Shown here: piece by piece, positions 32,465 through 60,127 of the stretch
Position numbering within the stretch: the first letter of the stretch is position 1
Layout: each line of letters begins with the position of its first letter
The notes under the pieces: generated by a model
Told to the model about the DNA's origin: nothing
Databases searched by the model: none
The model's input: only the letters and a program-made list of their open reading frames with translations
Made by a program: the position numbers and the translations under genes
IMG/VR virus record: IMGVR_UViG_2706796076_000001
Length of the DNA: 64,000 nt
Source: a virus
Lineage: Duplodnaviria; Heunggongvirae; Uroviricota; Caudoviricetes; Herelleviridae
Strand: one strand, 5' to 3'

Positions 32465-32493
32465 GACCCCTATTGACAGGGGTCTTTTTTTTA
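32465..32493 (+). terminator. rho-independent terminator with -35 box embedded in loop
   Basis: GACCCCT-ATTGAC-AGGGGTC followed by T8. The loop TTGACA, an 18-nt spacer and TATAGT form a promoter for gene 32532. Confidence 0.75.
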
Positions 32494-32531
32494 TGTTATA
32501 GTTTATATATAATAAATAAGGAGGAGTAAAA

Positions 32532-47071: not shown

Positions 47072-47108
47072 AAAAAAAAATACCGCTTCTATATTACTGA
47101 AGCGGTAC
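47072..47108 (-). terminator. rho-independent terminator for the minus-strand gene block (TACCGCTTC-loop-GAAGCGGTA)
   Basis: On the plus strand A9 precedes the hairpin, which reads as hairpin + U-run on the minus strand. It lies downstream of gene 47182..47448(-). Confidence 0.65.
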
Positions 47109-47181
47109 TCAACTATTCTGATATACTATTCAATTGTTCTAATATATAGTTAAACTATGCTAATGTATAGTCCATGTAGTA

Positions 47182-47448
47182 CTAACTGTATTCTATCTTA
47201 ATATTATAGTTACCTTTTTTACTTACTAGATTAAATCCAAACTCTTCTATTTCTTCTAGTGTTATAGGCTCAGAGAAATATAATTCAGGCTTTTTTGAGT
47301 TAGTATCAAGTAACATGACATTATATATGCTTTCATAATTACTGGTATCTTCTTTAATTATAAAGCCATACATATCTAAATCACTATCATATAATAAATC
47401 TCCATCTTGTAATGGTATAGTACTTTTCTTTTTTACTACTTCAATCAT
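47182..47448 (-). CDS. hypothetical protein (88 aa), paralog of 47467..47727
   Basis: Shared motifs MIE...GDL..D......G..IK.D.......IYNV.LLDT with the adjacent gene. Confidence 0.55.
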   Translation of the reverse strand: MIEVVKKKSTIPLQDGDLLYDSDLDMYGFIIKEDTSNYESIYNVMLLDTNSKKPELYFSEPITLEEIEEFGFNLVSKKGNYNIKIEYS

Positions 47449-47466
47449 TATTTATACCTCCTTATA

Positions 47467-47727
47467 CTAATACTCTATATTAAGTTTATAGTTATTTTTC
47501 TTTTGTATTACAGTAAAGTCTTTTGATATATCATATAATGTTTTAGGTTCTAGGTATAGTAAACTGTGTTCTTCATTTATTGTATCTAGTATTAGTACAT
47601 TATAAATACTTGAAGTACTATTAAAGTCTTGTTTAATTACAATACCTATATCACCTGTATAATCGTCTTGCACTAAATCCCCTACATTAACACTTTCTTC
47701 TCCTGTAACTTTATTAAGTTCAATCAT
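47467..47727 (-). CDS. hypothetical protein (86 aa), tandem paralog
   Basis: Paralog of the previous gene. Confidence 0.55.
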   Translation of the reverse strand: MIELNKVTGEESVNVGDLVQDDYTGDIGIVIKQDFNSTSSIYNVLILDTINEEHSLLYLEPKTLYDISKDFTVIQKKNNYKLNIEY

Positions 47728-47802
47728 TATGTAACTCCTCCTTATTTATTATACTATAAGTATATCATAGAAAAGACCTCCTGTCAAGAGGTCTAGTAAT
47801 TA

Positions 47803-48141
47803 TTATTCAAAATATTTATTTATTTTTTCAAGTGTGTTTTCTCTTTCTTCTTCCGCTTCAATGTACTTAAAATAGTATACATCAATTAAATCATAGATAT
47901 TATCTTGAGAGAATAAAACTTTTTCAAATTCATTTCTTTCTTCCTCTTTACTTAAATCTACTACTTCTACTTGAATATTATCTCTGTATAATAGCAATAT
48001 ACCTTTATTAAAACTATTATAAGTTACACTATAGTGTTCACTTACTAGGTATGTTATTGACGTAACTCTATTTGCTTCTTTAGTTCCTTCATTTCCTTTA
48101 AGTTGAATGTATTGTACAAAATCATCTAATGTAAATTCCAT
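47803..48141 (-). CDS. hypothetical protein (112 aa), member of a small paralog family with 49044 and 49503
   Basis: MEF..DDF..YI.. N-terminus and ...IYDLIDVYY motif, shared with the (+) genes 49044 and 49503. Confidence 0.5.
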   Translation of the reverse strand: MEFTLDDFVQYIQLKGNEGTKEANRVTSITYLVSEHYSVTYNSFNKGILLLYRDNIQVEVVDLSKEEERNEFEKVLFSQDNIYDLIDVYYFKYIEAEEERENTLEKINKYFE

Positions 48142-48282
48142 ATTATTCCTCCTTATTGATTATACTACTATTATAGCATAAGTAATATTAGTTGTCAAGT
48201 AAATTATTTTATTAAAAGGTATTGACACTTGATAAATAATAGTGTAGTATATAGATATACTTAATAAAAGGAGAAGATATTA

Positions 48283-48957
48283 ATGAAAAAAATTACACAA
48301 GAAGAATTAAACAATAAAATTGAATTGCATAAAGAATGGTTAGAAGATGATAACAAAGGGGAAAAGTTAGAATTAAATGGTTATAACTTAAGAAATTTAG
48401 ATTTAAGTAATTCTGATTTAAGGTACTCTAGTTTAAGTTGTTCTATTTTAAGTAATGTAGATTTAAGTTACTCTGATTTAAGTTTTTCTACTTTAAAAGA
48501 TGCTGATTTAGTAAAGATGGATTTAACAAAGGCTATTATAAGTTTTTCTAATTTAGAAAATATTGACTTAAATAGTGTTAATTTGAAAAATGCTAACTTA
48601 TATGGTGCTAATTTAGATAGTTCTTATTTAAGATGTGTTGATTTTAAAAATGCTAGTTTAAAGAATGCTAATTTAGATAATGCTCATTTAGAAAATTGTA
48701 ATCTAGAAGATGTTAATTTATCTCAAGCTAATACCCGATGTATTGAAGGACTAGAAGTATATTCAATTGACAATATAGGTACATTTGCAGGTAAAGTAAC
48801 GTATTTACCAGAGCAAGATAAAGTATTTGCTGGTTGCTGGAAAGGTAATTTAGAAAAGTTTTTAGAAAAAGGATTAGAAATGAATAAAGATAATGAGAAA
48901 GAAAAAAGGAATATTTTTAATGCTTATCAATTCTTTTTAGGTACTACAATTGATTAA
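48283..48957 (+). CDS. pentapeptide-repeat protein (Qnr/MfpA-like right-handed quadrilateral beta-helix) with C-terminal extra domain
   Basis: About 25 consecutive A(D/N)LxX pentapeptides: NLRNL DLSNS DLRYS SLSCS ILSNV DLSYS DLSFS TLKDA DLVKM DLTKA ... NLKNA NLYGA NLDSS ... The SD is AAAAGGAGAAG. Confidence 0.8.
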   Translation: MKKITQEELNNKIELHKEWLEDDNKGEKLELNGYNLRNLDLSNSDLRYSSLSCSILSNVDLSYSDLSFSTLKDADLVKMDLTKAIISFSNLENIDLNSVNLKNANLYGANLDSSYLRCVDFKNASLKNANLDNAHLENCNLEDVNLSQANTRCIEGLEVYSIDNIGTFAGKVTYLPEQDKVFAGCWKGNLEKFLEKGLEMNKDNEKEKRNIFNAYQFFLGTTID

Positions 48958-49043
48958 GTAGTAAAGCCTTTAAATAAAAGTGTTGACAAAATATAAGTAT
49001 CATGGTATCATTTATATATAAAGTTTAAAGGAGAGATTAAATT

Positions 49044-49388
49044 ATGGAATTTGATAGTATAGACTTAAAAAATTATATTGATAAGTATGGTAGAGTAGAT
49101 GATAAAAAATTATCAAAAACTATTGACTTAGGTAAAGGTTATGAGATACAGTATAAAGAACTAAATATTTTTTCTGGTTATTTACTATTTTGTAAAAATG
49201 GAAAAACTATATTAAAGGTAGACCTTAGTGCTTTAGATAAATTAGAACAACTTAACAAAGATATTGAATTACATTCTAACGTATTTGATTTAATTGATGA
49301 TTTATATGAAGACCTTACTAGAAAAGAAAATGAAGAAAAGAGAAGACAAAGAAGAATTGAATCAAGTGTTAAAGAATTTTTAAGCTAG
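49044..49388 (+). CDS. hypothetical protein (114 aa), paralog family member
   Basis: MEFDSIDLKNYI...VFDLIDDLYE. SD AAAGGAGAGA. Confidence 0.5.
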   Translation: MEFDSIDLKNYIDKYGRVDDKKLSKTIDLGKGYEIQYKELNIFSGYLLFCKNGKTILKVDLSALDKLEQLNKDIELHSNVFDLIDDLYEDLTRKENEEKRRQRRIESSVKEFLS

Positions 49389-49420
49389 ATTAATTCTAAA
49401 GGTGTTTATAGCCTTATATA

Positions 49421-49472
49421 GAAGCGGTATTGTTTCTAGGATTAAATAGTACTAGAAAAGTATTACCGCTTC
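49421..49472 (+). terminator. nested hairpin (GAAGCGGTA...TACCGCTTC with inner TTCTAG..CTAGAA stem); probable terminator/RNA processing structure
   Basis: 9-bp outer stem with a 30-nt loop that itself forms a hairpin. A weak T-tract follows. Confidence 0.4.
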
Positions 49473-49502
49473 ATACAGGCTTTTAAAAACATTAATATAA
49501 GG

Positions 49503-49865
49503 GTGTTAAATAAAAAGGAGATTATACAAATGGATATTGATATTATTGGATTTAAAAATTATATTAAAGAACATGGAAGAAAAAGTTATGTAGGGTATAA
49601 TACTTATTATACTATAACTAATGATGAGTATGGTGTAGAGTGTGTTTTTGATAAAGAAGGAGGTATTGTTACTATATCAAAGGGTAACTATGTTGAAATG
49701 TTTGAATTAAACACACTTAAAGGTAGAAATTTTAAAAAGAAATTAACTAAGTTTGATACTATTTACGAATTAATTGATTTCTATGATGAAAAAAATAAAG
49801 AAAGACTTGAAAAAGAAGAAAAAGAAAAGATTAAATTAAATAAATTTTTTAAAGGTATGAAGTAA
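49503..49865 (+). CDS. hypothetical protein (120 aa), paralog family member
   Basis: ...IYELIDFYDE motif. SD AAAAGGAGA. Confidence 0.5.
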   Translation: MLNKKEIIQMDIDIIGFKNYIKEHGRKSYVGYNTYYTITNDEYGVECVFDKEGGIVTISKGNYVEMFELNTLKGRNFKKKLTKFDTIYELIDFYDEKNKERLEKEEKEKIKLNKFFKGMK

Positions 49866-49889
49866 TGTTTATAATTAAGGAGTGTTTAT

Positions 49890-50090
49890 ATGAGAGAATC
49901 ACTAAAAGAATTAGAAACAGTAGAGTATGTAGTAAAACGTTATTTAGAAGAATTAGGTAAAGGAACATCTTATTCTGATGAAGAATTACCTAACTTCTTA
50001 GATAAAACTTTAAAAGAAAATAGTAGATTGACAGATGAAAAATATGATGAATTATTAAAATTACTTAAAGAAGTTAACAATACTTTATAA
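49890..50090 (+). CDS. hypothetical protein (66 aa)
   Basis: SD TAAGGAGTG. Confidence 0.45.
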   Translation: MRESLKELETVEYVVKRYLEELGKGTSYSDEELPNFLDKTLKENSRLTDEKYDELLKLLKEVNNTL

Positions 50091-50096
50091 TAACAA

Positions 50097-50137
50097 ACCG
50101 CTTCAGATTAAATTCTCGAAGCGGTCTTATTTTTTTA
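50097..50137 (+). terminator. rho-independent terminator (ACCGCTTC-loop-GAAGCGGT + T9)
   Basis: 8-bp stem followed by a T-run. Confidence 0.8.
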
Positions 50138-50208
50138 GGATGAAGACCTTAAAAAATTTAGGATGATACCCCCTTAAAAATTTTTACGATAGGTTGCTTA
50201 AAAATTTC
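50137..50208. repeat. three imperfect ~23-bp direct repeats (AGGATGAnnCC..CTTAAAAATTT)
   Basis: Seen directly. They lie upstream of the promoter at 50275. Confidence 0.5.
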
Positions 50209-50274
50209 AAAAAAGTTTTATTTATAATAAGATAAACTTATATCAAGTAATAAGTAAAAGTTATCATTTTTTAC

Positions 50275-50303
50275 TTGACCTGATATTAAAAGTATGGTAT
50301 AGT
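50275..50303 (+). promoter_or_regulatory. sigma70-like promoter driving an ORF-free structured region
   Basis: TTGACC, a 17-nt spacer, then TGgTATAGT. Confidence 0.5.
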
Positions 50304-50309
50304 ATAAGT

Positions 50310-50670
50310 ACAATAAGATAAAGAGCTGATGAGTATAGGTCATGCATAGGAACCTATAGGAATAGCGACAACGATGTGGTGGTAGTGAGCCACGAGCACC
50401 TGCATAAAACTCACAGGGCGGGTATAAGATATGCAATGCTTATACTTTGTAGGTATAGATACACTATACCTTCTACCATAGTTGGTGATGTCTACCAAGC
50501 AATAAAGGACAGGGAGGACTCTTAGGTTCAATATGAACGGGGTAGTATTAACCTATTAATTTAGGTTGCGTGGATAAGAGTGCGTGTAAAAATATTAACA
50601 AAAATGAAACTAGACCTAGCCTAAACTGAAATATGATTTAGCTCTAGTATTAATATCTTTTTTAATACTA
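50310..50670 (+). ncRNA. candidate structured non-coding RNA (unknown class)
   Basis: About 360 nt with locally elevated GC and many short perfect inverted repeats (GTATAAG/CTTATAC, GGTATAG/CTATACC, GTGAG/CTCAC, GTTCA/TGAAC). There is no plausible ORF; the two minus-strand ORFs on the track here lack SDs. A promoter lies upstream and a T-run at ~50657. Confidence 0.3.
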
Positions 50671-50714
50671 GGGGGTTAATCTACCCACTACCTTCCTGAA
50701 TACTATTATATATT

Positions 50715-50901
50715 CAAGTAGTATTGTCTATATTTTACCTATATAATGTAAGTAGTATTGTATGAATTTTATTCAAATATTCTTATAAATATACATAATT
50801 AGTAAGTAGTATTGTATGAAAAAGGCTAGTTGTTTCAAGTAGTCTGGTGTCTATTTTCCCCTAAAAATAGCAAGTAGTATCGTACGGATTTCCCCTAAAA
50901 A
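50715..50901. repeat. iteron-like array: 5 direct copies of AAGTAGTATTGT(ATGAA) plus 2 copies of TTTCCCCTAAAAA
   Basis: Copies begin at 50716, 50750, 50804, 50837 and 50872. Copies 2 and 3 are identical over 19 bp (GTAAGTAGTATTGTATGAA); copies 4 and 5 are degenerate. TTTCCCCTAAAAA sits at 50855 and 50888. Confidence 0.8.
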
Positions 50902-50940
50902 AGATATAAGATATAGAACATAAAAAGACTAGGGAAAACC

Positions 50941-51141
50941 CTAGTCTAATTGATTATATAATTTTTTTAATTCATTTTCTAGTTTATTAATTTTTTCTAT
51001 ATCATTATTTCTTTTTGCTTTTCTTAATAAACTTTCTTTTATTTTTATTTTTCCACTATTTTTATTTAATTCTTTTTTTAATCCATTTTCTTTTATATTT
51101 TTATTTAATGATTTTCTTTTATCTACTTTAATATGTGTCAT
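50941..51141 (-). CDS. small basic coiled-coil protein (66 aa)
   Basis: K/N/E-rich protein on the minus strand. Confidence 0.4.
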   Translation of the reverse strand: MTHIKVDKRKSLNKNIKENGLKKELNKNSGKIKIKESLLRKAKRNNDIEKINKLENELKKLYNQLD

Positions 51142-51173
51142 TATAATTCATTCCTTTTTAATTAATTTTTTTA

Positions 51174-51395
51174 TTAAATGTTTTTTCTTATAAAGTTATA
51201 AGCTTGTCTGTTTGTCATGTGTTCATAATCACCATCAGGGAATAGAGCAACTAGTTCATCATTCTCAGTAGCAAATTCAATGTTATGAATGATAATCCCT
51301 TTCAATGTGCTCCCACAACCGTCTGGCGTGTTGTATTCTTCAAAATCATAATCATTTCTTTTTAACCAATTTTTTAAATTTTTAACGTTTTTCAT
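51174..51395 (-). CDS. hypothetical protein (73 aa)
   Basis: Minus-strand ORF with a candidate promoter at 51462-51492(-). Confidence 0.45.
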   Translation of the reverse strand: MKNVKNLKNWLKRNDYDFEEYNTPDGCGSTLKGIIIHNIEFATENDELVALFPDGDYEHMTNRQAYNFIRKNI

Positions 51396-51915
51396 TTTTA
51401 ATCAATTCCTTTTTTATATAATATTTGTAGTGGGAATTTGTTTCCCTTGCTTACTACACTTAATATATTACAGCATATTACCGTATTTGTAAATAGAATT
51501 TTAAAAGTTTTAGGGCAATTTTACACTATTTACAAAAGAAAAAAGTGTAAAATTTACCCCTTGACAAATTGGCAAAAATGCCTTAACATAATAATTGGAG
51601 TGGTGGGTGGGTTATAAAAAAAGGGTATTATATAATTTTTTTTATATAATATATTTATTAACTTAAAGATAGTCATCACTTCTATTATATATTAATCTGC
51701 ATTAAAAAGCAATAGTCAATTTTACACCTTATTTCTGTTTATAAATGGATCATGACAGGTACATTATATTTCTATAATTTTTTTATAGAATAATTTTTTT
51801 ATGGTGAGATCTTGTTGTACACAATCTAATTTTATTTTAACCTATTTTCCAGTTTCTTCATATAATAGTAGAAAACAGACCAATAAAAAAATTTAAATAA
51901 ATTCATGTAAATCTA

Positions 51916-51944
51916 TTGATTAATCATAAGATAAATGATAATAT
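51916..51944 (+). promoter_or_regulatory. sigma70-like promoter (TTGATT-17-TAATAT, aTGaTAATAT extended -10)
   Basis: Matches the -10 family consensus of the 52-57 kb cassettes. Confidence 0.45.
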
Positions 51945-51980
51945 ATAATTACAGTAATTCACAGAAAGGAATTGTTAAAA

Positions 51981-52289
51981 ATGTATAAAAATAATATAGA
52001 ATTAATTGCAAATAATATAATGGAAACATTTGGTTATGATGGTTATAAGTCCAAAAACTTATACCGAAACGATTTAGGGGGTACAGGTTGGCATCCAGAA
52101 TTGACTGTACATGTACCTAGTGGCTTATATAGTGAAGATATTACTTTTTATAAAAGAAATAAGCTATTTGGTAAAACGCCTTATGATTACGGAATAGCAC
52201 GGGAATATAAAGGGTTAACTTTCTTTATTGTACAAGGTGGCGTTATCGTTATTGATAACGGGGAAATTGTTTTTGATGAAATAATTTAA
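51981..52289 (+). CDS. hypothetical protein (~103 aa)
   Basis: RBS AAAGGAATTGTTAAAAATG (cassette-type RBS). Confidence 0.5.
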   Translation: MYKNNIELIANNIMETFGYDGYKSKNLYRNDLGGTGWHPELTVHVPSGLYSEDITFYKRNKLFGKTPYDYGIAREYKGLTFFIVQGGVIVIDNGEIVFDEII

Positions 52290-52391
52290 AATTAGGGGTT
52301 GCAATCAAAACCCCTATTTGCTATAATAATACTTGTAAGGGAAAAGGAAACAACAACAAGAAAAAAAAATAAAAAAATTAAAAAAAAGGGG

Positions 52392-52420
52392 TTGACACCT
52401 TATAAGAAACATGTTAATAT
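52392..52420 (+). promoter_or_regulatory. cassette promoter (GGGGTTGACA ... cATGtTAATAT)
   Basis: TTGACA, a 17-nt spacer, then TAATAT. Preceded by the hairpin GGGGTTGCAATCAAAACCCC at 52297 and an A-rich tract. Confidence 0.55.
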
Positions 52421-52491
52421 AAAGATGTAAGGTAATCAAGCACACGGAATAGAAATTTAATAAAAAATATATAGAAAAGGATTTGATTTAA

Positions 52492-52773
52492 ATGAAAAAG
52501 AATTTTAAATATGAAGAAACAGTGACAGTAAATGGAAACGAGATTACAGTGTTCAGAATTGAAAATGATAATAACGGAAACCCTAGATATGTAGTACACT
52601 TTAGCGACCTGGGTATTAGCCTTTGGGATTATGACGATATTAACAAGCTATACGGTTTTAAAAAGTACACTGCTAAATGGTTTGGTGGTGGTGTAGTATT
52701 CCAAAGCTACAACATTGAAGAAACTATCAAATGGGCACTAGAAACAGTTAAAGAAAAAGAAGCGGTTAAATAA
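52492..52773 (+). CDS. hypothetical protein (93 aa)
   Basis: RBS AAAGGATTTGATTTAAATG. Its stop lies in the GAAGCGGT/ACCGCTTC hairpin at 52762-52786. Confidence 0.5.
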   Translation: MKKNFKYEETVTVNGNEITVFRIENDNNGNPRYVVHFSDLGISLWDYDDINKLYGFKKYTAKWFGGGVVFQSYNIEETIKWALETVKEKEAVK

Positions 52774-52822
52774 TACCGCTTCTGAATTAAATAAAAAAAT
52801 TATATAAAAAGGAATTGATATT

Positions 52823-53095
52823 ATGAATAACAAATTAAATGAAATTATTAAAACTGTATTATTTGGAAACAATGAAGAAATAAATAGAATTGCATTAGAT
52901 TATACTGTAACTTTAGATGAATTAAAAAAATTAAATGATTATTTTCAAATTCAAGATAGTGTAGCATTAAATAACGCTATTATGTTAGATACGGAAAAAT
53001 TATATAAAAATTCTGATGTATCTACTATTTTATTCCATAATTATATTATTGAAGTTTTAGAAGATATAAATAATGTTTTAAAAGATGTAAAATAA
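52823..53095 (+). CDS. hypothetical protein (90 aa)
   Basis: RBS AAAGGAATTGATATTATG. Confidence 0.5.
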   Translation: MNNKLNEIIKTVLFGNNEEINRIALDYTVTLDELKKLNDYFQIQDSVALNNAIMLDTEKLYKNSDVSTILFHNYIIEVLEDINNVLKDVK

Positions 53096-53129
53096 ATTAA
53101 ATAAAAAAATTATATTAAATAATATTAAG

Positions 53130-53159
53130 CCTAGGATTAAATTCCTAGGTTTTTTTTTA
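53130..53159 (+). terminator. rho-independent terminator (CCTAGGATTAAATTCCTAGG + T9)
   Basis: Same loop family as 16709 and 61535. Confidence 0.8.
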
Positions 53160-53216
53160 TTTTTTAAATTTATATAAAAAAATTATATAATAAAAATAAG
53201 GGTGTAAAATTGGTAC

Positions 53217-53246
53217 TTGACAATATTATATTAAAAATGCTATAAT
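53217..53246 (+). promoter_or_regulatory. strong sigma70-like promoter (TTGACA-18-TATAAT) driving an ORF-free transcript
   Basis: Consensus -35 and -10 hexamers. Confidence 0.6.
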
Positions 53247-53251
53247 AGAGT

Positions 53252-53445
53252 GGGAAGCTTTTTTTAATATAAAAATAAAATTAAATAACTTTTTTATATA
53301 AAAAGGTTTAGGGCTGGTCTTTTCCCCAACCTATCCGAGGTTTATAGAGGTTATCAGGCTGGGCTCCTCTTTCTTTCTATATATAGAATAACAAATTCTA
53401 CGGTATTTGTAAAGGGGTTTTACAAATTTTTTTTATTTTTTTTCT
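53252..53445 (+). ncRNA. candidate small non-coding RNA
   Basis: No ATG-initiated ORF was found. The GC-richer core is GGGCTGGTCTTTTCCCCAACCTATCCGAGG...CAGGCTGGGCTCCTC. It ends at AAAGGGGTTTTACAAATTTTTTTTATTTTTTTT. Confidence 0.3.
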
Positions 53446-53467
53446 TAAAAAAATTTGCATTTAGGGG

Positions 53468-53497
53468 TTGCAATTGTTTTTAATGTGTAGTAATATA
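53468..53497 (+). promoter_or_regulatory. cassette promoter (GGGGTTGCAA-17-TAATAT) followed by 5' hairpin TTGTAAGGG..CCTTACAA (53502-53535)
   Basis: Seen directly. Confidence 0.45.
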
Positions 53498-53652
53498 ATA
53501 GTTGTAAGGGAAAGCAATAACAAACCTTACAAGAATTATATAAAAAAATTATTAATTAGGGGTTGTTACAAATGATAACACTTTGGTTATGTTGTGAAAT
53601 AAAAATGTATATGGATAGTAAAAAAGAAAAAGAATTAATTTTTTAAAAAGTG

Positions 53653-53686
53653 TTGACAGTTACTTGAAACTATGATATTATATAAT
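53653..53686 (+). promoter_or_regulatory. cassette promoter (TTGACA-17-TATTATATAAT) followed by 5' hairpin (53686-53725)
   Basis: Seen directly. Confidence 0.5.
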
Positions 53687-53770
53687 TGTAAGGTTAAGGA
53701 AGCGGTCAACTGCTTCTAACCTAAAGAAATTAAATAAAAAAATTATAGAATTTGAAGGGAATTGATTTAA

Positions 53771-53902
53771 ATGAAAAAAATTACAACAACTTTAAAATTA
53801 ATCGGTATGAAAAATAATGAAAATTTTGCAGAAGAATTAAAAAACTACCGTCAAGATGTTACATTTTTGAAAGCAAATAAAATTGTAAAATATTCAAAAT
53901 AA
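53771..53902 (+). CDS. hypothetical 43-aa protein (below cutoff)
   Basis: RBS GAAGGGAATTGATTTAAATG. Reads MKKITTTLKLIGMKNNENFAEEL... Confidence 0.45.
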   Translation: MKKITTTLKLIGMKNNENFAEELKNYRQDVTFLKANKIVKYSK

Positions 53903-53905
53903 CTA

Positions 53906-53935
53906 TTGACAACTTAAACACAACATGTTATTATA
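53906..53935 (+). promoter_or_regulatory. cassette promoter (TTGACA-17-TATTAT)
   Basis: The -10 region reads ACATGTTATTAT. Confidence 0.5.
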
Positions 53936-53967
53936 GAGTTAACAAATAAGGAAAGGAATTGTTACAA

Positions 53968-54108
53968 ATGAGAGAATTAGAACTAGAAAGCATTATCGAG
54001 AACTTAGAAATGGAATTGGAATTCCAAGACCTTACTAAGAAAGAAGAAGCGGAAGCAAGAAGAGAGATTAAGAAAGCTAAAAAAGAACTAGAAGAGTTAC
54101 AAAAATAA
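53968..54108 (+). CDS. hypothetical 46-aa coiled-coil protein (below cutoff)
   Basis: RBS GAAAGGAATTGTTACAAATG. The antisense ORF 53931..54131(-) on the track is rejected. Confidence 0.45.
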   Translation: MRELELESIIENLEMELEFQDLTKKEEAEARREIKKAKKELEELQK

Positions 54109-54124
54109 AAATTAAATAAAGGGG

Positions 54125-54155
54125 TTGACAATCAACCCCTACACATGTTATTATT
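54125..54155 (+). promoter_or_regulatory. cassette promoter with -35 embedded in hairpin GGGGTTGACAATCAACCCC
   Basis: Perfect 7-bp stem enclosing TTGACA. TATTAT follows after an 18-nt spacer. Confidence 0.5.
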
Positions 54156-54187
54156 AACTTAACAAATAAAGAAAGGAATTGTTACAA

Positions 54188-54427
54188 ATGAAAGAATATA
54201 AAAACTATATAGCCGACACATACGAAAGAATTAAAGAGCAGGGAACTATAACACCTGATGTTTCTCAATGGTCTAACATTGAAGAATGTGATGACTTGTT
54301 CTATAAAATAAATTTATCATGTTTAAATATTTATGGCACAGGAACAAAAGAAATATCTACTACTCCTAAATGTGTTAAACTTATTCTTAATGATAATAAA
54401 ACAAAATATATAAAAAAAGGAGCTTAA
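54188..54427 (+). CDS. hypothetical protein (~79 aa)
   Basis: RBS GAAAGGAATTGTTACAAATG. Confidence 0.5.
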   Translation: MKEYKNYIADTYERIKEQGTITPDVSQWSNIEECDDLFYKINLSCLNIYGTGTKEISTTPKCVKLILNDNKTKYIKKGA

Positions 54428-54430
54428 AAA

Positions 54431-54577
54431 ATGATTAAATTTAAATATAAAAACAAATCATATAAAAGCACAGAATTAACTGACGCTTTGGTTACCTTAG
54501 TAGGTGGTACAACAGTTATTACTGTTCTTGATTACTTGATTAGTATTCAAGATAGTATAAATATTTTTATCAAATAG
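54431..54577 (+). CDS. hypothetical 48-aa protein (below cutoff)
   Basis: SD AAAAAGGAGC. Hydrophobic middle. Confidence 0.35.
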   Translation: MIKFKYKNKSYKSTELTDALVTLVGGTTVITVLDYLISIQDSINIFIK

Positions 54578-54579
54578 TG

Positions 54580-54609
54580 TTGACAATCTCTTCACTATTT
54601 GATATTATA
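54580..54609 (+). promoter_or_regulatory. cassette promoter followed by 5' hairpin TGTAAGGT-taaggaaaca-ACCTTACA (54612-54637)
   Basis: TTGACA, a 17-nt spacer, then TATTAT. The hairpin is followed by an A-run, not a T-run. Confidence 0.5.
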
Positions 54610-54670
54610 TAGTTGTAAGGTTAAGGAAACACCTTACAGAAAAAAAATAAAAAAAACTTTAAAAAAAGTA

Positions 54671-54700
54671 TTGACAGAAACTAAAGCACATGGTATTATA
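54671..54700 (+). promoter_or_regulatory. cassette promoter (tandem to 54580)
   Basis: TTGACA, a 17-nt spacer, then TATTAT (CATGGTATTAT). Confidence 0.5.
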
Positions 54701-54744
54701 ATTATAGAAAGAAAAACAAAAACAAAGAAAAGGAATTGATTAAA

Positions 54745-55074
54745 ATGAAAAAATACACAGTAGAACAATTAAAAGAAATCGTAAGAGAGGTTAACGCATG
54801 GGATGACAGTTTAGAAGAATTTTACTATAATCCAATGGATGAACTAGACGAGATTTTAGTAGGCATATCAGTTACTGAAATCTTAAGAATGGCACACTTT
54901 GGAGAGTTTGATTGGAATGATGATTATTTCACGATTAACGTTTACGGTAACTTAGACAGCTTAGACAACCTAGACTATAAAGAACTATTAAAAGACAATT
55001 ACAATGAAATTGTAGAACGCTACAACGAACTACTAGAAGACGGGGAAATTGAGCCTATAGAATTTGTAGAATAA
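54745..55074 (+). CDS. hypothetical acidic protein (~109 aa)
   Basis: RBS AAAAGGAATTGATTAAAATG. Confidence 0.5.
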   Translation: MKKYTVEQLKEIVREVNAWDDSLEEFYYNPMDELDEILVGISVTEILRMAHFGEFDWNDDYFTINVYGNLDSLDNLDYKELLKDNYNEIVERYNELLEDGEIEPIEFVE

Positions 55075-55089
55075 ATTTTAAAAAAACTA

Positions 55090-55119
55090 TTGACAGTAAT
55101 TTGAAACTATGATAATATA
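55090..55119 (+). promoter_or_regulatory. cassette promoter followed by 5' hairpin TGTAAGG..CCTTACA (55123-55160)
   Basis: TTGACA, a 17-nt spacer, then TAATAT. Confidence 0.5.
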
Positions 55120-55182
55120 AAGATGTAAGGTTAAGGGAGCGGAAAAATCCCACACCTTACAGAAAAAAATAAAAAAAGGTAT

Positions 55183-55212
55183 TGACACCTTACATAATAC
55201 ATGTTAATATAA
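55183..55212 (+). promoter_or_regulatory. cassette promoter (tandem to 55090)
   Basis: TTGACA, a 17-nt spacer, then TAATAT (ACATGTTAATAT). Confidence 0.5.
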
Positions 55213-55247
55213 ATATAGAAATTAAAACAAGAGAGGAATTGATTACT

Positions 55248-55511
55248 ATGACAAATTTCAAAAATGAATTTTTATCAAACTATAACTTTATGGATATTGA
55301 AAACTTTAACGATGGTAAGGATTTATATGAAGATAAGCCAAACACTGAAAAAGAAGATAAACTAATGGATGAAATTTTTGATTATGTAATTAACAACAAA
55401 TTAATGAATTTAGATAATGAAACAATTTGCTCAGTATTTAATAATGATACAACTTTAAAAATTGAAATTCACAACCCAGATACAGACAAAAAAAGATATT
55501 TAGAAATTTAA
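55248..55511 (+). CDS. hypothetical protein (~87 aa; track ORF from 55182 starts inside the promoter)
   Basis: RBS GAGAGGAATTGATTACTATG. Confidence 0.5.
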   Translation: MTNFKNEFLSNYNFMDIENFNDGKDLYEDKPNTEKEDKLMDEIFDYVINNKLMNLDNETICSVFNNDTTLKIEIHNPDTDKKRYLEI

Positions 55512-55522
55512 AAAAAAACTAT

Positions 55523-55552
55523 TGACAACGTAACTAGAACATGATATTATTA
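55523..55552 (+). promoter_or_regulatory. cassette promoter
   Basis: TTGACA, a 17-nt spacer, then TATTAT (ACATGATATTAT). Confidence 0.5.
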
Positions 55553-55582
55553 AATTAACAAATAAGAAGGGAATTGATTTAA

Positions 55583-56056
55583 ATGACAATAAAAGAATTT
55601 TTACAAAGACAAGAAGAAAGCACAGTAAAAGACGTAGCAAATTACGGAGTACAGTCAGGAGCAATAGGAGAACTTATTTACACAAAAGATGTAGTTAAAT
55701 TTTTTGATAACTACAGACAAGATATTGAAACTGTAGTTATAGATTACTTAGAAAGCGTAACAGGTGTTAAATATTTTAACTTACTAAATTACGAACTAAT
55801 GAACGACTTAGAAAATTATGTAAATGTTGAGTTTCAACATGAAGACACTTACATTGAAATGGAGTACCAAAAAGCTGAAGAAATTGCAAGAAGAGACATT
55901 GAAAATTTTGAAGATATGACAGAAGATGAACAAGACGAAGCTATTACTGAATGTTTAGACCTTGTAGAATTAGACTTACAAGACACAGACAAAGTGCAGT
56001 TTGTTAACTTAGCTGTTGAGATTGTAGCACAAGATATGACAGAAGAAATATATTAG
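55583..56056 (+). CDS. strongly acidic protein (157 aa)
   Basis: RBS GAAGGGAATTGATTTAAATG. Rich in D/E throughout. Confidence 0.5.
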   Translation: MTIKEFLQRQEESTVKDVANYGVQSGAIGELIYTKDVVKFFDNYRQDIETVVIDYLESVTGVKYFNLLNYELMNDLENYVNVEFQHEDTYIEMEYQKAEEIARRDIENFEDMTEDEQDEAITECLDLVELDLQDTDKVQFVNLAVEIVAQDMTEEIY

Positions 56057-56078
56057 AAGCGGTTTAAACCGCTTCTAA
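56056..56078 (+). terminator. palindromic hairpin AGAAGCGGTTTAAACCGCTTCT (terminator/processing site; no strong T-run)
   Basis: Perfect 9-bp palindrome overlapping the stop codon. Confidence 0.4.
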
Positions 56079-56167
56079 TATCTAAATAAAAAAGTTACTT
56101 AAAAAAGGAGATAATAAAAAGGGAAAAAACAATTGATAAAATAAAAGAGAGCATTAAAAAGAACGGG

Positions 56168-56437
56168 TTGGATTTTATTAAAATATCTAAAGATTTAAAT
56201 ATGAATATAAATAACGTTAAGCGTATCTATAATGAAGAACTTAAGGAATTAAAAACGGTTGTATATGTACTACATAACGATGTTGAAATCTTAACCGTTA
56301 CTAATGATATTCTAGAACTTATTAATAAAATGAATAGCCACGGTTTCAATATTAGTAGATTTGCAAACTCACAAGAAGTTAGAGAAGAAGCAGAAAACAA
56401 TGGTCTAACATTAGAGTTTAAACGATTAGAGCTATAA
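56168..56437 (+). CDS. hypothetical protein (89 aa; start uncertain)
   Basis: The ORF is listed from TTG 56168 with a weak SD. Confidence 0.35.
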   Translation: MDFIKISKDLNMNINNVKRIYNEELKELKTVVYVLHNDVEILTVTNDILELINKMNSHGFNISRFANSQEVREEAENNGLTLEFKRLEL

Positions 56438-56495
56438 GGTACTACAATGTACTTTATAGCTTCATATTAAAGAAAGAAGGAAGGAAAACATATAA

Positions 56496-56633
56496 ATGAA
56501 TGAGGAATTAAAAAAGTCTCTTGACGAGGCTGTGAGCGTCACACGTGAAGAGGTAACTCCTAACTGTTCAATGGTAGATATTGAGAACAAACTCGATGAT
56601 AACATTGTTAAATATGTTATCAAAAAAGATTAA
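56496..56633 (+). CDS. hypothetical 45-aa protein (below cutoff)
   Basis: SD GAAGGAAGGAAAA before ATG. Confidence 0.4.
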   Translation: MNEELKKSLDEAVSVTREEVTPNCSMVDIENKLDDNIVKYVIKKD

Positions 56634-56641
56634 AAAACCTG

Positions 56642-56672
56642 TTGACAGTTTCTATGTTATAATGTTATAATA
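56642..56672 (+). promoter_or_regulatory. sigma70-like promoter
   Basis: TTGACA, a 17-nt spacer, then TTATAAT with TG motifs. Confidence 0.5.
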
Positions 56673-56702
56673 TAATTAACAAATCAAAGGAGTTGCTTAA
56701 TT

Positions 56703-56981
56703 ATGAAAACATTAAACCAATACGAAATCGAATATTTACAATCTGAGAGAGAACAAGAGCAACAAGAAAGAGAAGAAGAAAGAAGACAAACAGAACTATT
56801 AGAAGAACTGAAAGAATTGTCTAGAGAACGATTAGAAGCTATCAATGAGAGCTTAACATATGAAGAGCTAACAGAAGCGTTAAGCATTGAAAATGCTTCA
56901 ATAGATGAACAACTAGAAGACTTAGAAACAATAGAAGATGAAGAACTAGAGATATTAGTAAGAGAGTACAAAGGGGAATAA
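56703..56981 (+). CDS. extremely acidic Glu-rich protein (92 aa)
   Basis: SD CAAAGGAG. Sequence EREQEQQEREEERRQTELLEELKEL...IEDEELEILV. The antisense Ser-rich ORF on the track is rejected. Confidence 0.5.
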   Translation: MKTLNQYEIEYLQSEREQEQQEREEERRQTELLEELKELSRERLEAINESLTYEELTEALSIENASIDEQLEDLETIEDEELEILVREYKGE

Positions 56982-57318
56982 TTCCCTTTGTATTTTTTTG
57001 TTTTTAAAAATATAAAATAAAAAAATTTTTATAAATAAATATAAAAAGGAATAGTTAAAGAGTGAATTAATATATCTATGATATTGTATAATTTTTTTAT
57101 ATATACGCCCCGTTATAAATTGCCATAAACAAGGGGTGTAATAATACCCTAGTATACCTACCTCAGGTTCCCTATAAACCACCTTAAAAATAAACTATAA
57201 TCTACAAAAGTCAACAAATAAATAATAAATTTTTATACGTATACAATACACCCTTCCCCGTTAATTTTTGTTATATTATACTATACCTAGGATAAAAAAT
57301 AATAAGGAGAAATATTAA

Positions 57319-58746
57319 ATGGATAAAATAATTAAAGTATATAAAAATAATAAACCTTGTTACATAGACTTAAATAATGTACCTACTAAAATACAACCAT
57401 CTGGAAAAGAAGTATATGATTTTAAAAAATGTAATAATACAGAAGTTCCTTTTGAGTATATAGGTGTTAAAGGTTATATAGTAATAGAAGAATATTTACC
57501 TAGTACTAAAGATAATAAAAAAGCTCGTTTAAAATTAAAGTATGATAATAACTATTATGTTATAAATAAAGAAAGTTTTTTAAATGTATCACTTAAAAGT
57601 ATAGTAGGTGATAAATTAGAACACAGTAAAGAATCAGCTAAAAGAAAGATGTATTATGAAAGCTTACCTCTAAAAAATAATGGTAAAGTAGATTTAAAAA
57701 ATAGTATTGGTTGTGATGTTTACTTTGAATTTAATAACTATAAGGGTTACGTCACTATCTTAGACTATTTTACTAAATATAATAATAAGGGTAAAGAAAT
57801 TGGTTATATAAGATTAGAACATGATAATAAAAATAGGTTATATAATGAGTATAATTTCTTTACTTGTAATATATCTTATTTAGCTAATAAGAACTCTGAT
57901 GCTAATAAAAATTTAATAGGTGAAGTAAATAATAACTATGAGATAGTTGATTATTTTAATGAAGAGTTTATAAATAAAGATGGTACTATAAATACAAGAA
58001 ATATGTTTAAAGTTAAGTGTTTAACTTGCGGTACAGTTAAGAAGGTTAGAGTAGACCATTTTTTAAATGGAGTACAAAAAAATTGTGGTTATTGTGCGGA
58101 ATTAAAAAGTAAAAACAAAGAAAATAAAAATAAATTTAATATAAAAAGAAGTTATCCAGAGAAAGTTGTTAAAGCTTACTTAGATGAGTTAGATATTTCT
58201 TATATACAAGAAAAAACTTTTGATTTCTTAAAAAGAAGAAGGTATGATTTCTATTTACCAAATTTAAATTGTGTTATAGAGGTTCACGGTGCTCAACATT
58301 ATAAAGAGTTAAGAGAAGGTGCTAGATTTAAACTAACTTTAGAGGAACAACAAAGAGTAGATAAAGAGAAAAAAGACGCGGTTCTTAATAATGGTATTAA
58401 ATATGTAGAGATAAATGCTGAGCTTTCTGACTTTGAATACATTAAAAATAGTATTAAAAACTCTTCTTTATATAATACTGATGTTAATTGGTTTAATGTT
58501 TTCAAAAACTCTTTCTATGATACAGATAATATTTTATTAGTTAAAAAATTATATGAAAAAAATTTAACTTTAAAAGAAATATCTATAGAATCTAAATTAA
58601 ATAAAAAAGTTGTAAGAGAGTATATAAATAAATTAAAAAAATTAAATCAGATAGAATATGAAGCTTATGAATTTGAAATAAGAGACTACCAAAAAGAAAT
58701 AGATATATTGCAAAGTAAAATAGATAATTTAAAAAGCAAGAGATAA
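57319..58746 (+). CDS. putative endonuclease: Zn-ribbon + DUF559/Vsr-like PD-(D/E)xK domain + C-terminal HTH
   Basis: CLTCGT...CGYCA forms a Cys4 ribbon. RRYDFYLPNLNCVIEVHGAQHY resembles the DUF559/Vsr-like endonuclease core. The C-terminal LTLKEISIESKLNKKVVREYINKL is an HTH. SD AATAAGGAGAAA. Confidence 0.45.
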   Translation: MDKIIKVYKNNKPCYIDLNNVPTKIQPSGKEVYDFKKCNNTEVPFEYIGVKGYIVIEEYLPSTKDNKKARLKLKYDNNYYVINKESFLNVSLKSIVGDKLEHSKESAKRKMYYESLPLKNNGKVDLKNSIGCDVYFEFNNYKGYVTILDYFTKYNNKGKEIGYIRLEHDNKNRLYNEYNFFTCNISYLANKNSDANKNLIGEVNNNYEIVDYFNEEFINKDGTINTRNMFKVKCLTCGTVKKVRVDHFLNGVQKNCGYCAELKSKNKENKNKFNIKRSYPEKVVKAYLDELDISYIQEKTFDFLKRRRYDFYLPNLNCVIEVHGAQHYKELREGARFKLTLEEQQRVDKEKKDAVLNNGIKYVEINAELSDFEYIKNSIKNSSLYNTDVNWFNVFKNSFYDTDNILLVKKLYEKNLTLKEISIESKLNKKVVREYINKLKKLNQIEYEAYEFEIRDYQKEIDILQSKIDNLKSKR

Positions 58747-58804
58747 AAACTCTTGCTTTTATTTATATAGATTACTTAAATAATAAGCAACCTTTTATAT
58801 AATA

Positions 58805-59233
58805 CTATTCTACTAAATCATAATCCTTATCTACAGTAATACTTAATACATCTAAGTGTGCATCATAATTAGTGTGTTGATATTCATTATAAGAATCACC
58901 TGAGAAGTATACTCTGTAATCTTCCGCTGAACCATCTTCATAGCCGAGTGTAATGACTGTGATGTCTGGATAATCCATTAATAAATGGTATGCTGTTAAT
59001 TTCTCATCTACACCAATACCGGCTTTAATTTCTTTAGGGTTATTTATTTCTATATTAAAGTGACTACAATACTCTCCCTCTAATACAATATTTGAAAAAT
59101 AATGTTTTGTTAATTTTCTTGTAATACCGTCTAATTCCATATAATCAATTTTATCAGAAGGAATCTTTACAAAATCACAATTTTCTAATATTAATTCTAC
59201 ATAACTTAATTCTTTATTATTAAGGTCTTTCAT
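58805..59233 (-). CDS. hypothetical protein (142 aa)
   Basis: Minus-strand ORF with SD (plus-strand CTCTCCTT at 59236). Confidence 0.5.
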   Translation of the reverse strand: MKDLNNKELSYVELILENCDFVKIPSDKIDYMELDGITRKLTKHYFSNIVLEGEYCSHFNIEINNPKEIKAGIGVDEKLTAYHLLMDYPDITVITLGYEDGSAEDYRVYFSGDSYNEYQHTNYDAHLDVLSITVDKDYDLVE

Positions 59234-59307
59234 TTATTATATCTCTCCTTATAAATAATTTAATTTTAGATACCTTACCTTGTTTATAGCAAGGTAAGGT
59301 ATAAGTA

Positions 59308-59814
<507 letters not shown>

Positions 59815-59872
59815 TATAATTCTCTCCTTCTAGTATCTTTTCCTTTATTATACTATAAAAAATATCTTTATG

Positions 59873-60127
59873 TTAAGTATTTTCTTTAACAATTTCTAAT
59901 TCATGGATTATAATCATATCTTCCTTAAAAAGAGGTACATCTTCTATATTATCTTTATGGTAATAAATGTACCCATCTTGAAGGTAACCGCTTCTTTTTT
60001 CTTCGTACCCTTCTTCTTTAATACGTTTAATTAAGTTATCCTTATTTGTATAAGCTTTATTTTCTCTATAAGAATAATTGTCTTCATATTGCTCACAATT
60101 ATCGTGTTCTGCTTGATATAAACGCAT
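59873..60127 (-). CDS. hypothetical protein (84 aa)
   Basis: Minus-strand ORF. Confidence 0.45.
   Translation of the reverse strand: MRLYQAEHDNCEQYEDNYSYRENKAYTNKDNLIKRIKEEGYEEKRSGYLQDGYIYYHKDNIEDVPLFKEDMIIIHELEIVKENT

Follow-up and report, generated by a model that had tools for sequence, protein, structure and literature searches.

A probable immediate-early promoter array in the Tre small-gene block of the Staphylococcus epidermidis phage phiIPLA-C1C

The Tre gene block and its promoters

The window analysed here is the whole 64,000-nucleotide (nt) stretch of the herellevirus record IMGVR_UViG_2706796076_000001, and this report concerns an array of small genes at positions 52290-56700 of it. 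The segment is 100% identical to positions 113498-117908 of the record of vB_SepM_phiIPLA-C1C (phiIPLA-C1C; KP027447; Sepunavirus, Twortvirinae, Herelleviridae), where it is annotated as a string of small genes, several of them labelled TreK, TreO, TreN or 'Tre protein'. Of its 14 genes, 12 have no more than 109 codons. Pfam recognises Phage_TreK (E = 3.6e-43), DUF7335 and DUF7222 among the products, and in tblastn five genes match gp010, 011, 014, 015 and 018 of phage K at 32-93% identity, the homologies being to TreJ, TreK, TreN, TreO and TreR. The Tre genes of Kayvirus have been named early host-takeover genes in the literature, and in Kayvirus records the orthologous genes lie inside the annotated long terminal repeat of 8.4-8.5 kb; the order of TreO and TreN in the array differs from that of Kayvirus. 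The array is syntenic with the annotated repeats of phage K and Fi200W, and BofL-like genes lie beyond it, which suggests that in phiIPLA-C1C, too, it is part of the long terminal repeat. No boundary of this repeat is apparent at the start of the Terranova record. The terminal repeat of SPO1, type member of the family, also houses a host-takeover module. The stretch from 52.3 to 56.7 kb is most probably the immediate-early promoter array of the Tre host-takeover small-gene block of this Twort-like myovirus. This kind of array is already known from sister phages, and its core phenomenon is documented in Kayvirus, SPO1 and T4-type phages.

For about 14 genes, a total of 13 co-oriented promoters of the sigma-70/sigma-A type are predicted on the plus strand, with -35 boxes starting at 52299, 52392, 53217, 53468, 53653, 53906, 54125, 54580, 54671, 55090, 55182, 55522 and 56642 (this count includes the sequence TTGCAA-17-TAATAT at 53468). 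The strict pattern TTGACA-N14-TGnTAnnnT is matched 18 times in the window, where dinucleotide shuffles predict 0.10, and eight of these sites fall within 52.3-56.7 kb; a looser regular expression has 26 matches, 12 of which, all on the plus strand, fall in the region, that is, in 7% of the window length. Every one of the 13 sites has a TTGACA-like box (exactly TTGACA in 11), a spacer of 17 +/- 1 bp, TGn and a TATAAT-like box, as expected of a sigma-70/sigma-A promoter with an extended -10. The form in the array is TTGACA, a 17-18 bp spacer, TRTGn and TA(T/A)(T/A)AT; the -10 box is TATTAT, TAATAT or TATAAT, preceded by (C/T)ATGn, which is the Gram-positive '-16 TRTG' element. An earlier note on this DNA had described a near-identical promoter with an extended -10, repeated at least 11 times, and these counts bear it out. 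Its extension of the -35 box by GGGG is real on four promoters and is not a general feature: the literal extended sequences GGGGTTGACA and GGGGTTGCAA occur twice each, and a fifth GGGGTTG, at 53559, is not part of a promoter.

The treK unit opens with a first promoter (P1) of the form TTGCAA-17-TATAAT with TGc (52299..52327), the orthologue of Kayvirus p11, and a second (P2) of the form TTGACA-17-TAATAT (52392..52420), the orthologue of p11_1, whose spacer begins with CCTTATA. A perfect promoter, TTGACA-18-TATAAT, at 53217..53246 belongs to a non-coding unit of about 190 nt (53252-53446); it is followed by the promoter TTGCAA-17-TAATAT at 53468..53496, conserved among relatives, and the treO promoter TTGACA-17-TATTAT at 53653..53681. 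The promoters at 53906..53934 and 54125-54154 carry leaders of class B (see below), that of the former being TTAACAAATAA... and then the ribosome binding site (RBS), while the -35 box of the latter lies within a stem-loop at 54120-54140. Next come a P1 at 54580-54608, with its -35 box within a stem-loop over the treN stop codon, and a P2 at 54671-54699 after an A-tract, a T-tract and an A-tract (54639..54699 together with the tract), then a P1 of the form TTGACA-17-TAATAT at 55090..55118 and a P2 at 55182-55210, whose spacer begins with CCTTACA (55162..55210 together with the preceding A-run). Class B promoters serve the treR-like gene (55522..55550) and, as TTGACA-18-TATAAT, the last gene of the array (56642..56671). 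There are three true tandem pairs, 52299/52392, 54580/54671 and 55090/55182, spaced by 91-93 bp here and by 87-96 bp in relatives, a distance that would be just enough for two polymerases. The succession of hairpin, A-run and second promoter had been reported in five places; a real second promoter is present at these three, whereas 53559 is not a promoter, and the leader at 53687 goes straight into the RBS. The supposed promoter at 53559 is actually the RBS-like start (GGGGTTGTTACAAATG) of a conserved, unannotated open reading frame (ORF) of 24 codons at 53572-53646 (53559..53646 with the RBS; MITLWLCCEIKMYMDSKKEKELIF), which is identical in seven relatives and has an in-frame 6-nt deletion in BE05. 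A 46-codon ORF with a TTG start at 54599-54739 (SEP1_150; L001 5001-5138) covers the P1-hairpin-A-run-P2 spacer, inside which the SEP1 annotation has a promoter; called over a tandem-promoter spacer, SEP1_150 is probably not a real gene.

Evidence for the activity of such promoters comes from orthologues. Kayvirus p10, p11, p11_1 and p14-p17 (p10-p17 including the tandem p11/p11_1) map to matching positions, and p11 is among the curated promoters used for a promoter matrix. The -10/-16 consensus of the array agrees with that derived from RNA-seq of Kayvirus vB_SauM-515A1 (-35 TTGACW, 17 bp, TRTGN, TATANT), in which a TAATAT -10 box is restricted to the takeover module. In phage 812, long-terminal-repeat promoters have been handled as a separate class, and gp014-gp018 of phage K are abundant transcripts 2 min after infection. 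In the Sepunavirus phiIBB-SEP1 (SEP1), promoters annotated with MEME stand at eight of the sites of the array. Phages K, 812, vB_SauM-515A1 and SEP1 resemble the array in having orthologous treJ, K, N, O and R, and Kayvirus also shares the tandem pair 5' of treK and the leader classes (TGTAAGGTAATCAAGCACA; TAAGATAACAAATAA), whereas gene order and content differ. These homologues, the location of the Kayvirus orthologues in the long terminal repeat, and their RNA-seq-supported early promoters with top transcripts at 2 min agree with the proposal that the region is a co-regulated early or takeover regulon. As far as the published accounts of Kayvirus and SEP1 promoters were covered, which was incompletely, they deal with single promoters and do not describe UP tracts, leader modules, hairpin families, a bipartite Shine-Dalgarno (SD) sequence or cassette-bounded indels. 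The present analysis adds a reading of the A-runs as UP elements, three leader modules, the bipartite SD, the stem families, a parallel to cassettes of T4-type phages, a wider range of the leader at the transcription start, and the recognition that the repeated cassettes mark points of gene gain, loss and swap. For SPO1, the small genes of the terminal repeat are said to be under many strong early promoters and strong RBSs, so far as the 1998 work is cited in PMC7414437. The promoter of SPO1 gene 45, from the same family, is built alike, with an A-tract, TTGACT, TGc, TATAAT, a 5' hairpin GGAGCGG..CCGCTCC and the RBS GGGGGAATTGGACATG, and since a strict promoter scan of the SPO1 terminal repeat finds only two or three sites, this comparison rests on one clear example; no gene homology to SPO1 was found, and no search aimed at it was made.

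The sequence upstream of the promoters is also uniform. When 12 in-region promoters were aligned on the -35 box, A was found at a frequency of 0.75-0.92 at -46..-40, T at 0.58-0.83 at -49..-47 and A at 0.67-0.83 at -55..-50, and this A/T/A profile is not shown by the 14 promoters elsewhere in the window. The UP-element consensus that Estrem and colleagues reportedly described in 1998 and 1999 consists of an A-tract at -46..-38 and an A/T-tract at -57..-47, the full element having proximal and distal subsites. Judged by base profile, the tracts upstream of the array promoters match this consensus. An A-run in place of a T-run after the hairpin had been regarded as an oddity; because its profile matches the UP element, the A-run is assigned to the downstream promoter (promoter 2) rather than to the hairpin. 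In the treK unit, for example, a TGTAAGG leader without a local 3' arm is followed by an A/T/A tract that would be the UP element of P2 (52333..52391, plus strand). The hairpin with its A-run was also considered as a minus-strand terminator, which is excluded by the T-run coming before the stem on that strand. The cassette seems to be built for maximal capture of the host sigma-A RNA polymerase: an A/T/A tract at -57 to -38 as in the UP consensus, TTGACA, a spacer of 17-18 bp, TRTGn at -16 and an all-A/T -10 box would lead into one of three stock leaders and then into an extended SD.

Leaders, ribosome binding sites and stem-loops

After the -10 box, three stock leaders are found, all of which are also present in Kayvirus. 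The class A leader is A(A/T)AG(A/T)-TGTAAGG(T)TAAGGAA..., in which TGTAAGG(T)TAAGGAA stands at the predicted transcription start (+1) and is often closed into a 5'-terminal hairpin; the class B leader is ...TTAACAAATAA-RBS; and the class C leader is A(A/T)TTATAGAAA...., or TATAGAAA. The arrangement TANNNT-N5-TGTAAGG occurs in the region four times on the plus strand and once on the minus strand, the latter being the reverse of a hairpin arm, which makes 5 against 0.28 expected. TGTAAGG leaders follow the -10 box at six positions (52334, 52426, 53503, 53687, 54614 and 55124). The hairpin ascribed to such leaders exists in four of the six, whereas those at 52334 and 52426 have no local 3' arm (minimum free energy, 0 and -1.6 kcal/mol). 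The leader at 52426..52494 passes without a hairpin through an A-rich stretch to the RBS GGATTTGATTTAAATG and the treK start; in SEP1, the treK class A leader (L001 3080-3180, equivalent to window position 52426) has four tandem copies of the SD-like AAGGAAAC against TAATCAAGCACACGG in the window. The folding leaders are UUGUAAGG-loop-CCUUACAA at 53502..53532 (-8.7 kcal/mol), GGUUA-AGGAAGCGG..CUGCUUCU-AACC at 53691..53722 (-16 kcal/mol, z = -3.4) upstream of an A-rich leader and the RBS GGAATTGATTTAAATG, UGUAAGGU-UAAGGAAAC-ACCUUACA at 54614..54638 (z = -5.8), and a nested hairpin at 55124..55161 (-14.9 kcal/mol, z = -5.9), all on the plus strand, with loops of varying length. With +1 taken as the sixth nt after the -10 box, a rule from Kayvirus RNA-seq with a resolution of 1-2 nt, the class A hairpins start at +1. 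Among 44 distinct class A leaders of relatives, the 5' 15 nt are almost invariant, while the 3' arm varies or is missing and, where present, pairs variously, as CCTTACA with TGTAAGG, (T)AACC with GGTT(A), or CTTCC with GGAAG. A scan of 51-58 kb against Rfam at E <= 1 gave no match.

The suggestion that the 5' hairpins are stabilisers or processing targets is plausible. For the class A leader, a function at the RNA 5' end is favoured by analogy with the SD-like and stem-loop stabilisers of Bacillales, including that of SP82, whose mRNA carries an RBS-dependent stabiliser. The likeness to the 5' stem-loop type lies in a stem that starts at the predicted +1, provided that transcription begins at the sixth or seventh nt after the -10 box, and the likeness to the STAB-SD and SP82 polypurine type lies in AAGG/AAGGAA repeats in the first 15 nt, the same as the functional SD core of the array; SP82 also belongs to the same phage family. 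STAB-SD pairs with 16S rRNA over about 9 nt, whereas each repeat here is complementary to it over only 4-5 nt. Being SD-like, the AAGG repeats at the extreme 5' end could add ribosome-mediated shielding from a 5' exonuclease. A minimal start-stop ORF at the 5' end, (A/T)TG-TAA, is unlikely because the predicted start lies at or past the T or G of the codon. On the other hand, the P1-plus-hairpin units might be genes for small trans-acting RNAs rather than mRNA leaders, as proposed for snc003 of phage K. The RNA-seq list of that phage gives the treO-treP spacer (6186-6352), which is a P1-hairpin-A-run-P2 unit, as the small non-coding RNA snc003, and a hairpin located at the predicted 5' end would suit such an RNA. 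However, snc003 was defined as the entire intergenic interval, the hairpin is followed by an A-run, a co-directional promoter and a gene instead of a terminator, the same leader leads directly to an RBS and a gene in the relative L027 and at 53653, and there is no Rfam match; small RNA genes are therefore improbable.

The RBS had been given as a fixed 18-mer, AAGGAATTGATTTAAATG, which in fact has zero occurrences; the sites instead form the family GGAATTG(A/T)T. The sequence GGA(A/T)TTGATT(T/A)AAATG is matched at four sites, and GG(A/G)NTTG(A/T)T-N3-5-ATG occurs 14 times in the window, 11 times in the array (51968-56689, plus strand) and once just upstream of it on the minus strand, at 51409. 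In a duplex prediction with the 3' end of 16S rRNA, AAGGA and UGAU pair around a 2x2 internal loop, and this pairing in two blocks explains the conserved 'spacer' of the RBS. The leader would end in an extended SD, (A)AGGAATTGAT, that pairs with the 16S 3' end in two blocks, and the core of the array RBS recurs as the AAGGAA in leaders of class A.

Stem-loops are also found around -35 boxes. The two hairpins named previously, at 52293-52316 (-12.7 kcal/mol) and 54120-54140 (-14.2 kcal/mol), are real, with z about -5 to -7, and a third, at 54570-54602, had gone unnoticed. The first, TAGGGGTT-GCAATCAA-AACCCCTA at 52293..52316, is terminator-like, surrounds the -35 box of the promoter at 52299 directly 3' of a treJ-like gene, and is annotated as a terminator in Twillingate and Quidividi. 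The second, AGGGGTTGA-CAA-TCAACCCCT, forms a unit with its class B promoter (54120..54154), and the third, CAAATAGTG..CACTATTTG, extends over the treN stop codon and the -35 box of P1 (54570..54608; -12.4 kcal/mol, z = -5.9). Strong hairpins enclosing the -35 box occur at five of the 26 window promoters (32473, 47787 on the minus strand, 52299, 54125 and 54580). Those at 32473 and 47787(-) are ordinary terminators whose T-run is the promoter spacer, and these sites (32473-32502, plus strand; 47759-47787, minus strand) are compact overlaps in which the -35 hexamer is the loop of a G+C-rich terminator hairpin, a design also seen at Kayvirus p68, p195 and p205. At sites of the 54125 type, relatives have alternative stems, GGGGTTGA/TCAACCCC, GGGCTTGA/TCAAGCCC (phage K), AAAGGCTTGA/TCAAGCCTTT (BE06) and GAAGCGGTT/AACCGCTTC (PG-2021_64), which indicates that the structure is kept through compensatory change. 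At least four unrelated stems enclose -35 boxes, each immediately 3' of the stop codon of the upstream gene, and these hairpins are best read as transcript-end structures that overlap the next promoter. A switch of the -35 box between duplex and cruciform, which had been suggested, is not supported and is unneeded, since unrelated stems recur right after stop codons and the same design elsewhere in the window is that of T-run terminators.

It is quite improbable that the inverted repeats act on DNA, with TGTAAGG/CCTTACA and GGGG...CCCC serving as operators of a shut-off repressor or as cruciforms masking the -35 box. Such action would fit the presence of CCTTACA/CCTTATA in P2 spacers of both genera and the speculation of the phage K authors about a factor binding the -35 region. 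Nevertheless, the spacing of the arms ranges from 9 to 22 nt, half of the sites are single-armed, and the design with the -35 box in the loop is a plain T-run terminator elsewhere in the window. In the stem at 53699, moreover, one pair persists only as G-U, a pairing possible in the plus-strand RNA but mismatched in DNA, and this favours an RNA structure over a DNA structure.

Stem-loops are also found at other cistron boundaries. A GAAGCGG...CCGCTTC stem-loop after treK (52758..52783), conserved in Kayvirus, and a 14-bp stem-loop of the same type after the treR-like gene (56050..56081) are both followed by an A-rich tract, the former without a T-run. The heptamers GAAGCGG and CCGCTTC occur seven times each in the 64-kb window, all within 47083-59988, where fewer than one is expected by composition; the copies make six hairpins with both arm orders, two of which are true terminators and the others of which lack a T-run. 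The hairpins at 52758, 53502, 53691, 54614, 55124 and 56050 are all followed by A-rich sequence and lack the U-tract of an intrinsic terminator. True intrinsic terminators in the array are found only at 53127-53152 and 56971-56989, the latter closing the array on the plus strand and annotated as a terminator in SEP1, Terranova and Twillingate. The G+C-rich stem-loops without T-runs at cistron boundaries, which belong to three recurrent stem families (GGGGTTGA, GAAGCGG and TGTAAGG), may act on RNA as protectors of 5' or 3' ends or as attenuators.

Probable gene exchange at the repeated cassettes

Modular shuffling of genes at the conserved cassettes had been proposed together with a check by comparative genomics, and the alignment of 51.5-57.5 kb to eight Sepunaviruses supports it: junctions of indels and replacements lie within the repeated segments of promoter, leader and A-run, and chimeric cassettes can be recognised. 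The gene at 52823-53095 stands between direct copies of AATTAAATAAAAAAATTATAT (21-25 nt; left copy 52785..52809, right copy 53095-53119), and five relatives lack the gene and retain one copy (junction 52809|53095). In 110, Terranova, BE05, BE06 and BE04, extra genes are flanked by duplicates of the segment 53906-53994, which comprises a promoter, its leader and a start codon. By base-by-base alignment, BE05 fuses the P1-hairpin of one unit with the A-run-P2 of the next via the shared ACACCTTACAGAAAAAAATAAAAAAA (junction 54655|55152), while BE04 lacks treK and the non-coding unit and has a hybrid promoter plus TGTAAGG leader in their place (52433|53641). At the start codon of the treR-like gene (55586-55596; replacements 55583-55596), unrelated genes lie downstream in other phages, and metagenomic relatives show additional module combinations. 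The same segments of 25-90 nt every 200-500 bp could act as sites of homologous recombination, which would repeatedly have inserted, deleted or replaced single genes and left tandem promoters behind.

A similar arrangement has been reported as promoter-early stem-loop (PeSL) cassettes in T4-type phages (Arbiol et al., 2010, PMC2839356; Comeau et al., 2014, PMC4122927). Both combine a strong sigma-70-like promoter, preceded by an AT-rich tract, with an SD, a start codon and a stem-loop of variable position (over the -35 box, between the boxes or after the -10 box), and both cluster among small ORFan genes, where indels between close relatives are bounded by cassettes and chimeric cassettes remain. 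In the array, seven of the 13 promoters have a stable stem-loop over the -35 box or at +1, and the others have none. In contrast to the T4-type myoviruses of Gram-negative hosts, the present phage is a herellevirus of a Gram-positive host, and the array stems are not polyG/polyC and are mostly followed by A-rich rather than T-rich tracts. The parallel is an analogy of mechanism, not membership.

It is unlikely, although less so than action on DNA or small RNA genes, that the similarity reflects recent common descent only, with duplicated promoter copies, tandem promoters as neutral deletion scars, and hairpins and leaders without function. BE05, BE04 and the contig L027 have P1/P2 modules joined or split by single recombination events, and many class A leaders lack a hairpin, as such a view would predict. 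However, Kayvirus, at about 70-76% DNA identity over the alignable parts, retains the tandem P1/P2 of treK and one more tandem pair, hairpins enclosing the -35 box recur with unrelated stems and compensatory changes, and the 15-nt leader stands at +1 in phage contigs of 31-47% G+C.

Several points weigh against the interpretation of the region as an active early array of mobile cassettes with functional leaders. Support for promoter activity comes from orthologues only and not from phiIPLA-C1C itself, and the assignment of +1 is borrowed from Kayvirus RNA-seq, with its limited start resolution. The hairpin is missing in two of the six class A leaders of the window and in about 40% of those in relatives, so that it is not obligatory, and the invariant 5' arm rules out the scoring of classical covariation. 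One pair of junctions in SEP1, 56127|56371, lies outside the cassettes. Furthermore, nearly all intergenic DNA in the array is cassette, and junctions that avoid genes land in cassettes regardless; the position of junctions alone is thus weak evidence, and the case for homology-driven exchange comes solely from the chimeric and duplicated cassettes.

Just past the array, phiIPLA-C1C, SEP1, 110, Twillingate and BE06 have an ORF of 475 amino acids (57319-58746) that Terranova, BE05, BE04 and Quidividi lack. Its sole Pfam match is a sub-threshold HTH_40, and it could have come in as a mobile insertion close to the presumed repeat boundary. The non-coding unit at 53217-53446 has its perfect promoter, then an AT-only near-palindrome of about 45 nt, a variable core and two terminator-like hairpins, with no ORF and no Rfam match in it. 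It is conserved in Kayvirus in the same place, between treL and treM, where the minus-strand small RNA snc002 of phage K falls inside it, and several Sepunaviruses have a second copy, a paralogue, which some of them combine with a perfect minus-strand promoter in convergent orientation. Folding of 53252-53446 shows no excess stability (z = 0.04), and the apparent compensatory pairs in the alignment stem from two non-homologous core variants, so a structured RNA is not claimed there; an origin-like combination of promoter and unwinding region is conceivable. A scan of the 64-kb window found no tRNA.

The leader in other phages and the significance of the array

In phage contigs that differ widely in base composition, the +1 leader TGTAAGGTTAAGG recurs exactly 5-6 nt past -10 boxes. 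An exact scan of IMG/VR for TGTAAGGTTAAGGRA retrieved Sepunavirus-like contigs together with contigs of 31-47% G+C (27% in the window), in which a sigma-70-like promoter ends exactly upstream. Of 87 distinct occurrences outside Sepunavirus, ten have a fitting promoter at an offset of 5-6 nt, compared with one fit over all 34 other offsets. The loci L022, L030, L031, L036, L108, L111, L114 and L130 have TGTAAGGTTAAGGRA 5-6 nt after the -10 box, some contigs with several copies; a BLAST search of L030 against cultured phages gave no match. In L108, an unrelated contig, the first gene has the leader itself as its RBS, and one occurrence precedes a tRNA array. Related forms are found 5' of genes in an enterococcal herellevirus, a Streptococcus thermophilus phage and a lactococcal phage. 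An Rfam scan of seven unrelated leader-bearing contigs yielded tRNA matches only, and no mention of the literal leader was found in a literature search.

The fixed position of the 15-mer, 5-6 nt after the -10 box in unrelated phages, would also be expected of a sigma-dependent promoter-proximal pause element, with TGTAAGGTT at +1 (TGn plus the -10-like AAGGTT, in which hexamer positions 2 and 6 are A and T) holding RNA polymerase for a phage factor. The model for such an element is the lambda PR' pause, at which a phage factor is loaded. A pause is very improbable, since no Q-like antiterminator was identified here, and in several phages the motif is no more than the first gene's RBS, while it precedes a tRNA once. 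Returning to a possible action of the leader at the RNA 5' end, it can be proposed tentatively that UGUAAGG(N2-3)AAGGAA is a widespread, unrecognised 5'-end module of early transcripts of Firmicutes phages, docking ribosomes or shielding the 5' end, and that PeSL-type mobile cassettes outside the T4 superfamily drive the turnover of takeover genes in the terminal repeats of Herelleviridae. If true as a general signal for 5'-end protection or ribosome docking, the leader would be a useful addition to Gram-positive RNA biology.

These phages are candidates for therapy, and the Tre genes are the first expressed and the least understood of their genes. Annotation errors are probable in this block, in the form of ORFs called over tandem-promoter spacers and one missed gene of 24 codons. 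The array may offer very strong and compact expression parts for staphylococci. Interchangeable promoter-leader-RBS cassettes would explain why near-identical phages differ in gene content, and the array of cassettes would predict where new takeover genes will appear.

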